IMG/VR virus record: IMGVR_UViG_2541047595_000015
DNA: 35,633 nucleotides
Reading direction: 5' to 3' (one strand)
From: a virus
Taxonomy: Duplodnaviria > Heunggongvirae > Uroviricota > Caudoviricetes
Shown: positions 3,007-27,625 of the stretch, one piece after another
How positions within the stretch are numbered: the first letter of the stretch is position 1
How the letters are laid out: the number at the start of each line of letters is the position of its first letter
Program-made: the position numbers and the translations under genes
Notes under the pieces: generated by a model
What the model was told of the DNA's origin: nothing
The model's database searches: none
The model's input: only the letters and a program-made list of their open reading frames with translations

Positions 3007-3344
3007 AGCAACTCCTGAGTCCGGGTCTGTCCGTCTGAGCCTTTCCAGCTCACCCGGAGCGTAAGATGTTCGCCGTCGACGGCGGGTTTAACTGACATAA
3101 GCTGGCAGCGGGGCTCCCAGCGTCGGATGGCATCGACGGATTCGCGCACCACATGCGGAATGGCCCGGTCTACAGGCCAGTCGATATAAAGATGCAGATT
3201 GCTGCCGAACTCCGGGCGATGCGGGTCGCTGCCGCGGGGAGTCCGCAGGATAATTTGAATCGCCTGCCGGATATCATCCAGCCCCCGGACAATTTCGCCG
3301 GGAGCCTGCAGGGTCGGTTGCCAGAATACTGAGGTTGTTTTCAT
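2997..3344 (-). CDS. Baseplate assembly protein W (gp25-like)
   Basis: 115 aa, size and position typical of GPW/gp25; follows the V-like spike gene. Confidence 0.7.
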   Translation of the reverse strand: MKTTSVFWQPTLQAPGEIVRGLDDIRQAIQIILRTPRGSDPHRPEFGSNLHLYIDWPVDRAIPHVVRESVDAIRRWEPRCQLMSVKPAVDGEHLTLRVSWKGSDGQTRTQELLWR

Positions 3345-24655: not shown

Positions 24656-25642
24656 CTATTTAAGAATAAAACGGTATTTACTGTCAGGAGTGCTTTGCTG
24701 ATCAAGTAGCAGTGAACGACATGGAGCAGTCAAAACCCGAGCATAACTACCATCAGGGCTTATGTTAATGTAACAAACCTTGCCCTTAACACTATAATTT
24801 TCGGGGACGGATGCCTTTGCTGATACAGTAAATTTAAGGGTATGCCAGCCCGTTTTTTGCTTGTAGCTTGAAACCGAATGGAAATCATCTGAGTACTTAT
24901 TTAACCCTGGAAACATGCTGCGCAGTGCGGGGATGGAATCTTCTATTATTTTATCGTTGGTTTTAATGTTAAAAACGCTGGTTTCAGTAGAAGCTACTGC
25001 TTTGGCATTTCCCCATTTACCAGCGAACACAATCATTCCCACGAAAAATATTGCTACAAGAACTAACACTCCCCCCAACACTACTACATGAGGCTTCCGG
25101 CTTCTGGTTGGTACAGTTGCGACTGATTTTGCACCGCTTTCCGATGGAGGTGATAGAGTTTTACTCTCATCACGAATATTCAGCAGATCATCAAAATAAC
25201 CAAACACAGCCTGCAACTGCTCTTTGTCTAGGCCTTTAAGATGGGTTGTACCGAAATGCTTCAGACAGTATCTGTCACGGTCAAGACGATACCCAGGGTC
25301 AGTAAGCGCCATTATTTTGCTGACCAGAAGATTACAGTCCTTCATATTCTGGATCTGTTGTGCATATCTCTGAAGGATCTCAACCGCACCATGATAATCA
25401 GCCGCAGTCATTTCATTAACTGTTTTGGTATTAAGTTTCGTGTGGATCGTCATCCATAGCTCGCGCTTACTTTCCCCCAGATCAACCAATTCATCCATCA
25501 ATCTGTGTAAATCGCGTTTTTGCAGCAACGAAATTGGTTGCTGGGCCGAAGGAAGTATGTCAGCAGAATAGTTATGAATGGTAACATCACCGCTGACAAC
25601 GTTACCCACATCCCCGTTAACTGTTTGCTTCTCTTTACTCAT
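24656..25642 (-). CDS. Single-pass membrane protein (cytoplasmic N-domain, TM, C-terminal ~110-aa domain)
   Basis: 328 aa; one hydrophobic helix (HVVVLGGVLVLVAIFFVGMIVFAG) in the middle; ATGA overlap with the upstream HTH gene; AT-rich. Confidence 0.5.
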   Translation of the reverse strand: MSKEKQTVNGDVGNVVSGDVTIHNYSADILPSAQQPISLLQKRDLHRLMDELVDLGESKRELWMTIHTKLNTKTVNEMTAADYHGAVEILQRYAQQIQNMKDCNLLVSKIMALTDPGYRLDRDRYCLKHFGTTHLKGLDKEQLQAVFGYFDDLLNIRDESKTLSPPSESGAKSVATVPTRSRKPHVVVLGGVLVLVAIFFVGMIVFAGKWGNAKAVASTETSVFNIKTNDKIIEDSIPALRSMFPGLNKYSDDFHSVSSYKQKTGWHTLKFTVSAKASVPENYSVKGKVCYINISPDGSYARVLTAPCRSLLLDQQSTPDSKYRFILK

Positions 25643-26100
25643 CTTCTCTTGGTATTTTTGTTCATTATTCCACCTGTTCCTATGGTTACGTTACCTTTGA
25701 TAACATTCCCCAGAACATCTCCATGAATAACCTGTTCCGCCCGTTCTCTGGAGGAGCCAGTAGTCAAGGCCGACAAAACTGAACCTTTGACCTGTAATGG
25801 TGCCTGCCGGTAGTGCTGCAGTAACTCCATTTCATCACGTGATAAAGTTATACCTGATGACTCCCCGGTAAGAATGAACTGTACATTGGCCCCAATTCTT
25901 GCAAAGGCTGCAAGTAACTCACCTCCGGGAACAGCAACCCCTCGTTCATATTTCCCCCACATTTCTCTTGAAACGCCACAAAGGGCTGCTACTTCAGCCT
26001 GCTTGAGTGATAACCGCGAACGCTCAGCTTTGAACCGCGACGCGCAAAGAGAATCAAAATTCACATAAACCTCATTGACAATGAGAACAATAGTTCTCAT
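25639..26100 (-). CDS. XRE-family HTH transcriptional regulator (candidate prophage repressor)
   Basis: 153 aa; HTH_XRE-type motif LSLKQAEVAALCGVSREMWGKYERG; divergent from the Ner-like early gene as in the Mu c/ner switch; start codon lies inside an inverted repeat. Confidence 0.7.
   Translation of the reverse strand: MRTIVLIVNEVYVNFDSLCASRFKAERSRLSLKQAEVAALCGVSREMWGKYERGVAVPGGELLAAFARIGANVQFILTGESSGITLSRDEMELLQHYRQAPLQVKGSVLSALTTGSSRERAEQVIHGDVLGNVIKGNVTIGTGGIMNKNTKRR
26081..26100. promoter_or_regulatory. Inverted repeat (operator candidate) overlapping the repressor start codon
   Basis: ATGAGAAC-aata-GTTCTCAT: 8-bp arms with a 4-bp spacer; minus-strand ATG at 26100-26098 lies within one arm. 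Confidence 0.45.
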
Positions 26101-26150
26101 AATCTATCACATATAAAACAAACATCATTGCATCAACAAAGGAGACAACA

Positions 26151-26339
26151 ATGACTTCCGAACAAGTTAAAAATCTCTTCCGTCAGCGTGGTATCACGTT
26201 TACCCGCTGGGCCGAAGAACACGGCTACAGCCGCAATGAGGTCTATCGTGTTCTCAATGGACAGACCAAAGCTCGTTACGGCAAAGCCCATGAAATTGCC
26301 GTAAAACTGGGATTAAAACCCACGTCAAATGCGGCATAA
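26151..26339 (+). CDS. Small Ner/Cro-like DNA-binding regulator (first early gene)
   Basis: 62 aa; AGGAG RBS; HTH-like TRWAEEHGYSRNEVYRVLNG; divergent from the repressor gene; resembles small DNA-binding proteins of BcepMu-like phages (from memory). Confidence 0.6.
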   Translation: MTSEQVKNLFRQRGITFTRWAEEHGYSRNEVYRVLNGQTKARYGKAHEIAVKLGLKPTSNAA

Positions 26340-26391
26340 ATTTTCCACATATGCAACAGGTTATCACATATTGCAAAAATGGAAATGTGAC

Positions 26392-26700
26392 ATGAGTAAA
26401 GTAAATATTTCCAGTTCTGGGACCCGCATCCTACGTGTACTCAAAGCTCTACGCGGTCATGCTCTGAACGGTGTTTCTAACGGTGAACTGGCATCAGCCC
26501 TGGGGGAGTCCCCAGCGAATATCAATCGAGCACTTAATACCCTTATTGAAGAGGGACTGGCCATGAAATTAGAGAACGGACGTTTCGCACCGGGAATCCA
26601 GTTACTACAGATCGCCATGGCTCACAGTCACGAGATGGCGCGTGCACAGGATCGTATTAACGAAATCAACCAACGAGTTATTTCAGGTAGTCGTTTGTAA
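26392..26700 (+). CDS. Winged-helix DNA-binding protein (hypothetical regulator)
   Basis: Start placed at the ATG at 26392 (MSKVNISSSGTRILRVLKALRG...); MarR/IclR-like HTH region GVSNGELASALGESPANINRALNTLIEEGLA. Confidence 0.45.
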   Translation: MSKVNISSSGTRILRVLKALRGHALNGVSNGELASALGESPANINRALNTLIEEGLAMKLENGRFAPGIQLLQIAMAHSHEMARAQDRINEINQRVISGSRL

Positions 26701-26710
26701 GGAGTAATCA

Positions 26711-27625
26711 ATGGGACGCACCAAATCACCCGTTAACACTGAACTGAATGTTGAGGTTCCGCTGTCAGATAACATCAATGTCAATTTGAACGCTATGACA
26801 CAGCATCGCATGGAAATTATGCAGCAGTTTGGTGATGGACTGCCTTATGAACGTGATCGCATTGTTCACGAAGCACGTTTTTATATGGCGCAGAGTGCTG
26901 AATCTATGCTGGAAGCGGGTAAGCGGCTGATCATCTTAAAAGAAAATGAGCCACACGGTGATTTTACAAACATTTTAGAAAATGAACTCGGACTTGCACC
27001 ACAAGTTGCTCGCCGCATGATGCAAGCCAGTATGAAGTTTTTGGGAGAAGGTGATGAGCCAACAAAACGCTCAACGTTGAGCGTTTTGGGGAAAGCCAAA
27101 CTGTACGACCTGATGGTTCTGGATAATGAAGAACTTGATGAATTGGCCGACGGCGGCACAGTTGCCGGCCTGACGCTTGACGACGTTGATCGCATGTCAG
27201 TACGTGAATTGCGTCAGGCCCTGCGCGAAGCGCGCGAAACCAACGCAGCACAACAGCGCGTACTCGCTGACAAAAATGAAAAAATAGACTCACTCTCCAC
27301 CAGACTGGAGAAGAAATCCCGTATTCAGCCGCCTGAGCCTGATGAAGAGGTTAAGAAGCTGCGGGCGGAAGTGACAGCATTAGCGGTTGAGGCGGAATCT
27401 GCTATCGCCGTTCGACTGTCCAGCGCTTTTGAGACGCTGTGCGCATATTGTGCTGAAAACATGATTGATACCCCCAGAGACTTCATGGCAGGCCTGGTCT
27501 GTCAACTGGAAAGCACAGCGCGTAGCCTGCGCTCCACATTTGACCTGCCGGATGAGCCAACAGGCAATGCCGCGCCTTCATGGCTGACTGAGCCGACGCC
27601 ACAGATTAACGGGCTGGAGGCATAA
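26711..27625 (+). CDS. Hypothetical early protein (acidic, coiled-coil rich)
   Basis: 304 aa; AGGAG RBS; immediately upstream of the transposase gene. Confidence 0.5.
   Translation: MGRTKSPVNTELNVEVPLSDNINVNLNAMTQHRMEIMQQFGDGLPYERDRIVHEARFYMAQSAESMLEAGKRLIILKENEPHGDFTNILENELGLAPQVARRMMQASMKFLGEGDEPTKRSTLSVLGKAKLYDLMVLDNEELDELADGGTVAGLTLDDVDRMSVRELRQALREARETNAAQQRVLADKNEKIDSLSTRLEKKSRIQPPEPDEEVKKLRAEVTALAVEAESAIAVRLSSAFETLCAYCAENMIDTPRDFMAGLVCQLESTARSLRSTFDLPDEPTGNAAPSWLTEPTPQINGLEA

Follow-up and report, generated by a model that had tools for sequence, protein, structure and literature searches.

The c-ner switch of phage Mu comprises the operators O1-O3, the promoters Pe and Pc and a Ner site, and the Ner protein turns down both early and repressor transcription. 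Cro of lambda and 434 uses the same operators as the repressor, and in the Pant promoter of P22 the Arc operator lies between the -35 and -10 hexamers. For phage Fc02 of the B3 family, strand-specific RNA sequencing in a published study indicates that the repressor is transcribed from a proximal promoter, pC2, which overlaps pE (PMC9936078); for Fc02 lysogens, the same study describes an additional distal promoter, pC1, beyond the ner-like gene, and a transcript of ~1.7 kb that is antisense to this gene (PMC9936078). Here we describe the corresponding region of a viral DNA stretch of 35,633 nucleotides (IMG/VR record IMGVR_UViG_2541047595_000015; the whole stretch is called the window below), which is a BcepMu/B3-like transposable (Mu-like) prophage with Escherichia coli as its host. 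Taking all parts of the explanation together, we consider it likely that positions 26047-26114, at the start of the repressor gene (minus strand) and upstream of a small helix-turn-helix (HTH) gene of the gp16 family (plus strand), are the immunity switch of this prophage.

The switch appears to work like the c/ner switch of Mu and the switches of lambdoid phages and is a homologue of the B3/Fc02 region, and its proteins are not members of the Mu repressor or Ner families. As in B3 and Fc02 (Beetrevirus), a gene for an XRE/P22-C2-like repressor (36% identity to the B3 ORF18 repressor) is divergent from a ner-like gene of the gp16 family (71% identity to B3 ORF17), which is followed by genes for a winged-helix protein (57% identity to B3 ORF14), a DUF3102 protein and a transposase. 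The short intergenic switch with overlapping divergent promoters is also shared, the promoters of the window being candidates. In contrast, B3 and Fc02 possess two extra genes between the ner-like and the winged-helix gene, ORF16 (gene 10) and the gene of a CII-like activator (B3 ORF15), and their distal pC1 is placed beyond gene 10; the window has neither ORF16 nor the CII-like gene, but a 52-nt spacer with TTATCACATAT instead. No definition of operators was found in the B3/Fc02 literature as far as it was consulted, and the literature searched apparently holds no description of operators for phages of the BcepMu family.

A preliminary description of the window, made from its sequence alone, had pointed to an operator-like inverted repeat overlapping the repressor start codon and had suggested that it might belong to a repressor/Ner-like switch. 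The repeat is indeed exact: positions 26081-26100 form a perfect 8-4-8 dyad, ATGAGAAC-aata-GTTCTCAT, which we call O1, the predicted main operator. It is embedded in a predicted early promoter, Pe (26075-26103, plus strand), which consists of TTGACA (26075-26080), a 17-nt spacer and CATAAT (26098-26103) and matches the sigma-70 consensus at 11 of 12 positions. Pe is the sole match of at least 11/12 on both strands of the 35.6-kb window (0.19 expected per shuffled window). O1 fills its 17-nt spacer and overlaps the first three bases of the -10 hexamer. Transcription is predicted to start at about 26109-26111, and Pe reads into the gp16-family "Ner-like" gene. Perfect repeats with 8-nt arms and loops of 0-8 nt were found 11 times in the window, compared with a mean of 5.3 in shuffled sequences; such a repeat alone is not rare, but the position of this one, in the spacer of Pe and recurring in relatives, is not chance. 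Even when three mismatches were tolerated, the window contained no further match to the dyad. The search for the same half-sites across the prophage that the preliminary description had proposed yielded no extra copies: ATGAGAAC is present at O1 only, and the sole other site, recovered with a weight matrix, is O2 (see below).

The arrangement was compared in 80 loci anchored on gp16 (one genome per species, numbered with an L) and in the phages PhiKM, KP12 and B3. The order of -35 hexamer, palindrome and -10 hexamer upstream of gp16 was kept in most of ~60 related loci, and in nearly all loci with a divergent repressor the 130 nt upstream of gp16 contained a -35 hexamer, a palindrome in a spacer of 16-18 nt, a -10 hexamer and a conserved leader. 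Phage B3 likewise has TTGACA-17-CACTAT with a dyad in the spacer. The palindromes themselves were wholly different between loci: TGCTCATAATTATGAGCA in PhiKM, TATACACgtttGTGTATA in Erwinia, GTCCCATttATGGGAC in Brenneria and Photorhabdus, TGTGATCTATAGATCACA and GGTATAAAttTTTATACC in Pectobacterium, GGTATTCattcGAATACC in Pseudomonas and GGTGCAAtattTGGCACC in B3. The palindrome varies with the repressor type and not with gp16. The window-type dyad, ATGAGAAY-n4-GTTCNCAW, occurs in L018, L035, L062-L066 and L077 (same-type loci below), the repressors of which have the recognition region of the window's repressor, CGVSREMW(G/S)KYERG. When 39 distinct repressor/operator pairs were compared over 18 operator positions, 15.8-16.2 positions matched at a repressor identity of at least 60%, and 6.8-6.9 at an identity below 40%. 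The similarity of operators correlated with repressor identity (Spearman coefficient 0.415, permutation p ≤ 0.0005), compared with a coefficient of 0.19 for gp16 identity. The position in the Pe spacer and the covariation with the repressor allele thus support the assignment of the repeat to the switch, and it is very probable that O1, located within the early lytic promoter, is the main operator of the repressor. The operator reading holds, with Pe as the chief predicted target of repression at O1.

A border at O1 is visible among E. coli prophages. Of 5,426 complete E. coli genomes, 125 contained the immunity region at ≥99% identity and 573 the shared leader; another 446 genomes align only from 26098-26100 rightwards, at ~94% identity. 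At positions 26098-26100, O1 ends on its right side and the -10 hexamer of Pe begins. Therefore, the junction between the immunity cassette and the early module coincides with the right edge of O1, within the promoter, which indicates that immunity cassettes are exchanged by recombination inside Pe.

A predicted second, weaker operator, O2, is located at 26047-26066 (AAGAGAATCAAAATTCACAT), with its centre 34 bp to the left of that of O1. Using a weight matrix built solely from the O1 sites of other same-type loci, O2 ranked second in the whole window with 17.3 bits, a score reached by one of 200 shuffled windows; the next site had 7.1 bits. All same-type loci have a counterpart at -33/-34. This includes L077, where the encoded residues are MNFSYQ instead of the VNFDSL of the window, yet the pattern GA.AA...GTTC is kept. 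Of 26 operator types searched for 160 bp to either side, 17 had their best second match at -28 to -34, whereas ~0.6 would be expected according to our own arithmetic; paired operators about three helical turns apart thus appear to be a trait of the family. Two points weigh against this picture. O1 and O2 are 34 bp apart in the window and 28-34 bp in the various types, a distance that does not strictly correspond to full turns of the helix and makes cooperative binding uncertain, and O2 is part of a coding sequence that is homologous among the same-type loci, so that its recurrence is not independent, with the exception of L077.

O2 covers the GTG codon at 26064-26062 (minus strand) and the first codons that follow it, and this GTG, rather than the annotated ATG, is probably the true start of the repressor. 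It is preceded by a Shine-Dalgarno sequence, GAGG (26070-26073, minus strand; CCTC on the plus strand), and GAGG, GGGG, GGAG or GGTGA is kept at the same spacing in the same-type loci. The annotated start is the ATG at 26100-26098 (minus strand), which corresponds to the longest open reading frame (ORF) and to the RefSeq protein WP_001259268.1 of 153 amino acids, beginning with MRTIVLIVNEVY; this ATG lies in O1 and lacks a Shine-Dalgarno sequence. Where the window has ATG-AGA, L018 and L035 have ATG-TGA and L062-L066 have TTG-TGA, and L077 has TGA directly before an ATG at the position of the window's GTG. Stop codons thereby interrupt the upstream frame in six of the seven distinct loci of the same type, which start 36 nt further in with GTG or ATG. 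In the window, this frame is open owing to one base of the right O1 arm (GTTCTCAT and not GTTCACAT), and therefore ORF finders and RefSeq call a protein of 153 amino acids, whereas the repressor probably has 141. Thus, the overlap of the dyad with the repressor start codon, from which the preliminary description had derived a possible autoregulation, is probably an artefact of the annotation. Autoregulation itself is plausible through O2 at the real start codon, but not through O1 at the ATG, and we conclude that the overlap with the predicted start codon holds for O2 and not for O1.

Two other roles for the dyad have to be weighed against repression of Pe. It could act at the repressor's own start codon, either as an autoregulatory operator or as an mRNA hairpin masking the ATG. 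The dyad does overlap the ATG of the longest ORF and of RefSeq, and a leftward repressor transcript would have to cross O1, where bound repressor could act as a roadblock. However, the stop codons in the same-type loci and the start 36 nt further in with its Shine-Dalgarno sequence speak against it, and in all immunity types the two hexamers of Pe enclose the dyad, no matter how far away the repressor starts; we regard such a role as quite improbable. Still less probable is that O1 belongs to gp16, acting as a Cro-type protein that shares the operators of the repressor, or to the winged-helix protein. Operator sharing in lambda and 434 and the 434-Cro-like fold predicted for gp16 would fit the former, but heteroimmune E. 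coli prophages combine ~94% identical leader DNA with unrelated palindromes, PhiKM has a gp16 that is 85% identical to that of the window and an unrelated palindrome, and the similarity of operators follows repressor identity and not gp16. The winged-helix protein, in turn, is 91-100% identical across phages with different O1 sequences. Repression of Pe by the repressor bound to O1 is retained as the predicted function of the dyad.

The preliminary description had also listed three CACATAT-containing motifs in the two short intergenic regions of the early operon as sites for one regulator. TATCACATAT at 26105-26114 and CACATATTGCAA at 26365-26376 are located as described, and CACATATGCAA is present as well, but at 26346-26356, one base to the left of 26347-26357. 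In addition, TATCACATAT recurs exactly at 26362-26371. CACATAT occurs three times in the window (26108, 26346 and 26365), compared with 3.18 expected copies, always on the plus strand and within 264 nt. For the two intergenic stretches alone, the expectation from local composition is 0.009 and 0.007 copies, and the local expectation for an exact 10-mer shared by two intergenic regions of ~50 nt is ~0.01. Two of the three copies are conserved in related phages. The third (26346-26352, plus strand, within TTTTCCACATATGCAA) is not: it is missing in PhiKM and most relatives and reads CATATAT in L093, the winged-helix protein of which is 96% identical to that of the window, and its presence is probably due to chance. 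The nonamer TTTTCCACA (26341-26349), which holds this copy, fits the relaxed DnaA-box consensus TTWTNCACA, but it is mutated in L093 and absent elsewhere, and this fit is probably chance, too.

The leader motif (26101-26114, plus strand, AATCTATCACATAT, containing TATCACATAT) lies at about +1 of Pe and reads TGTGaTAGATT on the minus strand. It is semi-conserved in Enterobacterales of any immunity type as CTAWCACAYAT or CACGTAT, with CACACAT, CACGTAT and CATGTAT as variants of its core, and the leader following the -10 hexamer, CTAWCACAYAT...CAAACATCATTGCATCAAC, is common to phages with unrelated repressors and operators. The Lonsdalea locus and L023 lack the leader copy and keep the downstream one. 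The downstream element (26353-26371, plus strand) has the sequence GCAACAG-G-TTATCACATAT and ends 20 nt upstream of the winged-helix gene; its family consensus is GTAACAG-A-TTATCACATAT, with GTAACAG near-invariant in the alignment, and its minus strand reads TATGTGATAAC in the window and TATGTGATAAT in the family. The exact 11-mer TTATCACATAT (26361-26371) was present once, on the same strand and 22-37 nt past the gp16 stop codon, in 33 of 84 loci, and the distance from the element to the next ATG is fixed at 17-20 nt. Among 46 distinct contexts upstream of winged-helix genes in viral contigs, TTATCACATAT occurred in all 27 in which gp16 is directly upstream and in none of the 19 without gp16. 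The element has diverged in L011-L014 (7-8 of 11 positions), where gp16 is nearly identical and has the same HTH residues, and the Pseudomonas and B3 relatives, with gp16 proteins that are 66-75% identical, possess neither CACATAT motif. The TATCACATAT-type motif has no dyad symmetry.

We conclude that the two conserved TATCACATAT copies belong to the gp16 module that is common to heteroimmune phages. A wider distribution was found for another block of the leader, CATCATTGCATCA (CATCWTTGCATCA; 26123-26135, plus strand), which lies at a fixed distance to the gp16 ribosome-binding site and is kept over a range that spans E. coli, Pseudomonas phage B3 and Betaproteobacteria (CATCTTTGCATCA), i.e., more widely than CACATAT. 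It is the sole leader block that is conserved wherever gp16 occurs, and is a candidate site for the conserved gp16 protein or a candidate promoter element.

Several variations around the downstream element were observed. In many genera (Photorhabdus, Xenorhabdus, Lonsdalea, Pectobacterium and Brenneria), a degenerate TTATCA(C/A/G) is situated exactly 20 nt upstream of TTATCACATAT; in Photorhabdus (e.g., L045, ~3195-3236) the minus strand of this copy reads TGaTAAAAT, and the window's own copy upstream of TTATCACATAT is 19 nt away and of a different sequence. In L016, L031 and L036 (~3190-3260; Brenneria and Pectobacterium), the ATG that follows the cassette of TTATCACATAT and ribosome-binding site is the exact insertion point of an additional ORF (MKPS...). 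In KP12-type phages (L003, 2281-2505), an unrelated HTH gene for 74 amino acids replaces gp16 and overlaps the start of the winged-helix gene, and the TTATCACATAT cassette is missing.

Of the three regulators proposed for these motifs in the preliminary description, the repressor is excluded, the winged-helix protein is unlikely and the "Ner-like" gp16 protein is possible. The motifs are unchanged in phages with unrelated repressors and operators and are therefore not repressor sites. For the same reason we rejected a third half-site for the repressor in the leader motif: the likeness of TATCACAT to GTTCACAT is coincidental, as the motif is conserved beside unrelated operators. A winged-helix protein site at TTATCACATAT was rejected, since the protein of KP12-type phages is ~91-92% identical and has no such site, and in L016, L031 and L036 the site precedes a different ORF. 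The second intergenic region could also have encoded an N-terminal extension of the winged-helix protein (the frame is open from the ATG at 26329 in the window), but in relatives the motif occurs in all three frames and with in-frame stop codons. An RNA hairpin CACAU...AUGUG around the ribosome-binding site of the winged-helix gene loses its pairing in L002, L031 and L035; RNAalifold predicted no pairs in the alignment of the spacer between gp16 and the winged-helix gene, the CACAU/AUGUG arms had no double-sided changes and performed no better than shuffles, and an Rfam scan of this region of the window returned a chance-level match only (E = 0.78). No acceptable -35/-10 pair was found for a rightward sigma-70 promoter in the second intergenic region. 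Among host-factor sites compared by eye with the conserved element (integration host factor (IHF), consensus WATCAANNNNTTR; CRP, consensus TGTGA-N6-TCACA; LexA box; Fur box; DnaA box), none fits.

Our preferred, though tentative, reading is that the minus strands of the two conserved CACATAT copies are elements of leftward repressor promoters. The repressor ribosome-binding site is ~2 nt away from the -35 hexamer of Pe, so that transcripts of the repressor gene have to begin on the right-hand side of O1 and run across both operators. The consensus of an extended -10 promoter is TRTGn, and the minus-strand sequence is TGTG-a-TAGATT for the leader motif and, for the downstream motif, TATG-t-GATAAT in the family and GATAAC in the window, so that both (26101-26111 and 26358-26370) resemble extended -10 elements directed towards the repressor. 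With a simple -10 matrix, both motifs were the best minus-strand candidates in most loci and always scored above the plus strand. Loci without the leader motif have other good minus-strand hexamers nearby, TATAAT in L023 and TACAAT in Photorhabdus, and those with a diverged downstream motif have TGtTACACT 12 nt away. The promoters pC2 and pC1 of Fc02 offer a precedent in homologous DNA. Several observations count against these promoters: the shuffle p-values per locus are only 0.02-0.3 (~0.03-0.09 for the leader), the distal hexamer of the window, GATAAC, does not end with the important T, the sequence at the position of the downstream element is a different one in L011-L014 and L077, the invariance of all 11 nt exceeds what a -10 element needs, and the window does not have the CII-like gene that accompanies the distal promoter region of B3. 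Moreover, the leader copy varies between genera and the downstream copy does not, which argues against a single shared ligand with equal requirements at both.

Binding of gp16 to the TATCACATAT copies is compatible with leftward promoters and is itself a possibility, if a doubtful one. In that case the "Ner-like" protein with its 434-Cro fold would bind at about +1 of Pe and just past its own gene, lowering early transcription and stopping leftward transcription of the repressor gene. The gp16 protein is far too conserved to recognize the variable operators and would thus require a separate, conserved site; the two conserved copies flank its gene in the same orientation and are inherited together, the invariance of 11 nt across genera suggests a sequence-specific ligand, and the gp16 model has a small XRE/434-Cro-like fold predicted to bind DNA. 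On the other hand, L011-L014 combine the same HTH residues of gp16 with the diverged downstream element, the Lonsdalea locus and L023 have only one of the two copies, the motif lacks the symmetry of a dyad, and CATCWTTGCATCA, being shared with the Pseudomonas and B3 relatives that have neither motif, is a better universal candidate for gp16. It is also conceivable, but rather unlikely, that CACATAT recurs mostly by coincidence, the downstream element being a translation-initiation or mRNA cassette, or a host-factor site, for the gene after gp16, and the leader copy a conserved initial transcribed sequence of Pe, with no shared ligand and no leftward promoter. The total of CACATAT copies in the window equals the chance expectation, one copy is unconserved, the leader copy varies and the downstream copy is invariant, and the downstream element keeps its 17-20 nt from the next ATG even where an ORF has been inserted (L016, L031 and L036). 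Against coincidence stand the exact 10-mer with its low local expectation, the lack of conserved RNA structure, of compensatory changes in the candidate hairpin and of an Rfam match, and the promoter that the repressor gene would still need to the right of O1. We keep leftward promoters as the preferred reading of the two conserved copies. It may further be, although we would not expect it, that GTAACAG-N-TTATCACATAT and its twin in the leader form the core of a second layer of the switch, namely a CII-independent distal repressor promoter (like PRE or pC1) that is antisense through gp16, and/or operators of gp16. If true, BcepMu-like phages would run a three-promoter switch, in which cassettes of repressor, O2, -35 hexamer and O1 are swapped inside the promoter spacer and the anti-repressor layer is universal.

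From the computed architecture, conservation and operator-repressor covariation, we infer binding, promoter activity, start sites and motif function as follows. In the lysogen, dimers of the divergently encoded XRE-type repressor on O1 and O2 would silence Pe. The dimer on O1 would occlude Pe and exclude RNA polymerase, leaving the transposition genes silent, and O2 would probably support paired binding and negative autoregulation. Since repressor transcripts cross both operators, occupied O1 and O2 would also limit the repressor's own transcription. Once repression is lifted, Pe would fire from ~26110 and drive gp16 and then the genes of the winged-helix protein, the DUF3102 protein, the transposase and the ATPase. 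The leader and downstream motifs would serve as extended -10 elements for two leftward repressor promoters, one proximal and one distal, the counterparts of pC2 and pC1 of Fc02, and may also be targets for a shut-off of repressor synthesis by gp16. Because gp16 is conserved and the operators are variable, gp16 cannot read the operators; its target is presumably a conserved sequence of the leader. Any leftward promoter would, in addition, be subject to interference from the convergent transcription that starts at Pe.

With Mu, this switch shares its setting in a transposable phage, a leftward repressor gene, and a rightward early operon that opens with a gene for a small DNA-binding protein and continues with transposition genes. 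The predicted blocking of Pe by the repressor, and a small protein expected to lower repressor synthesis through a site apart from the operators, are further similarities. The components are different: the repressor has an XRE HTH and not the Mu-type winged-helix domain shared with MuA, gp16 does not belong to the Ner family of Pfam (HTH_35), the transposase is an rve/IS481-like protein of 589 amino acids, and two simple dyads ~30 bp apart take the place of three composite operators and an IHF site. Like the lambdoid phages lambda, 434 and P22, the prophage has dyad operators predicted to be read by a dimeric HTH repressor and paired operators overlapping the lytic promoter, it belongs to a group in which cassettes of heteroimmune repressors and operators are exchanged between otherwise similar phages, and it possibly has a leftward promoter beyond the cro analogue that, like PRE, is antisense through this gene. 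In contrast to these phages, it has two operators and not three, and neither an S24 peptidase domain in the repressor nor a CII gene. Furthermore, the Cro analogue is conserved and the operators vary, so that, unlike in lambdoid phages, the Cro analogue cannot share them.

The surrounding genes are consistent with the classification of the prophage. Among deposited phages, Escherichia phage PhiKM (Bcepmuvirus) is the closest, and the same region of 1.1 kb is present at ≥95% identity in ~125 complete E. coli genomes. The repressor gene (25639-26064, minus strand, from the GTG) encodes a protein for which HTH_31/HTH_3 (XRE) is the sole Pfam match; it belongs to phrog_8, RstR/DicA-like models match below their cut-offs, and an S24 peptidase domain was not found with Pfam. 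The early genes on the plus strand encode, in this order, the HTH protein of 62 amino acids, the winged-helix protein of 102 amino acids, the DUF3102 protein, the rve-type transposase and an AAA ATPase. The gp16 gene (26151-26339) is the positional analogue of ner and cro. Its product matches TIGR04111 (BcepMu_gp16) with 94.4 bits at a cut-off of 34 (NCBIfam) and Pfam only with a sub-threshold HTH_31. The nearest folds to its predicted model (predicted local distance difference test score 86.9) are the 434 repressor DNA-binding domain and 434 Cro, although the Foldseek matches are weak (E = 0.09-0.2); Mu Ner was absent from the top 50 fold matches of the model, and there was no Ner chain among the PDB sequence matches. 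The second gene of the early operon (26392-26700) encodes the winged-helix, IclR-HTH-like regulator (Pfam HTH_IclR; phrog_1368), followed by the DUF3102 gene (26711-27625). On the minus strand, an ORF for 328 amino acids (24656-25642; phrog_10002, no Pfam match) overlaps the repressor stop codon by 4 nt and is presumably co-transcribed with the repressor gene in the lysogen, which makes it a candidate gene for lysogenic conversion or exclusion.

The arrangement of repressor and operators is classical; it is an ordinary phage switch and not conceptually new. What the analysis provides is a concrete map of a lysogeny switch, with the predicted repressor sites O1 and O2, the promoter they would silence, the point of cassette recombination and the probable correction of the repressor from 153 to 141 amino acids, for a phage family that is also found in many other Proteobacteria. 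Such a map helps to predict heteroimmunity, induction and superinfection behaviour and to engineer these phages. Something new could come from the invariant 11-mer and from a palindrome within the DUF3102 gene.

This palindrome is unrelated to the operators and potentially more interesting than they are. It is a perfect 24-bp palindrome, AAAACGCTCAAC|GTTGAGCGTTTT, at 27064-27087 (extending to 27063-27088) in the coding sequence of DUF3102, and relatives have at least 12 different perfect palindromes at the homologous codons. The literature searched contained nothing on the function of DUF3102. A canonical terminator was rejected, as only 3-4 T follow the stem, and the search for a protein that covaries with the palindrome arms gave weak correlations only, none of them clear. 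In 24 distinct cores, 96.2% of the cells pair, compared with at most 47% in slid controls, and changes on both sides are seen in eight of 12 pairs. With a score of 0.573, compared with 0.169 in shuffles, the covariation exceeds that of all 500 shuffles. The amino acids of DUF3102 change in a way that keeps the symmetry of the palindrome. The central bases (ACGT or GCGC) are symmetrical as well, which would not be expected of a hairpin loop; at the same time, G.U-type mismatches are over-represented on the sense strand, and the RNA fold is stable (-22.2 kcal/mol, z-score -2.65).

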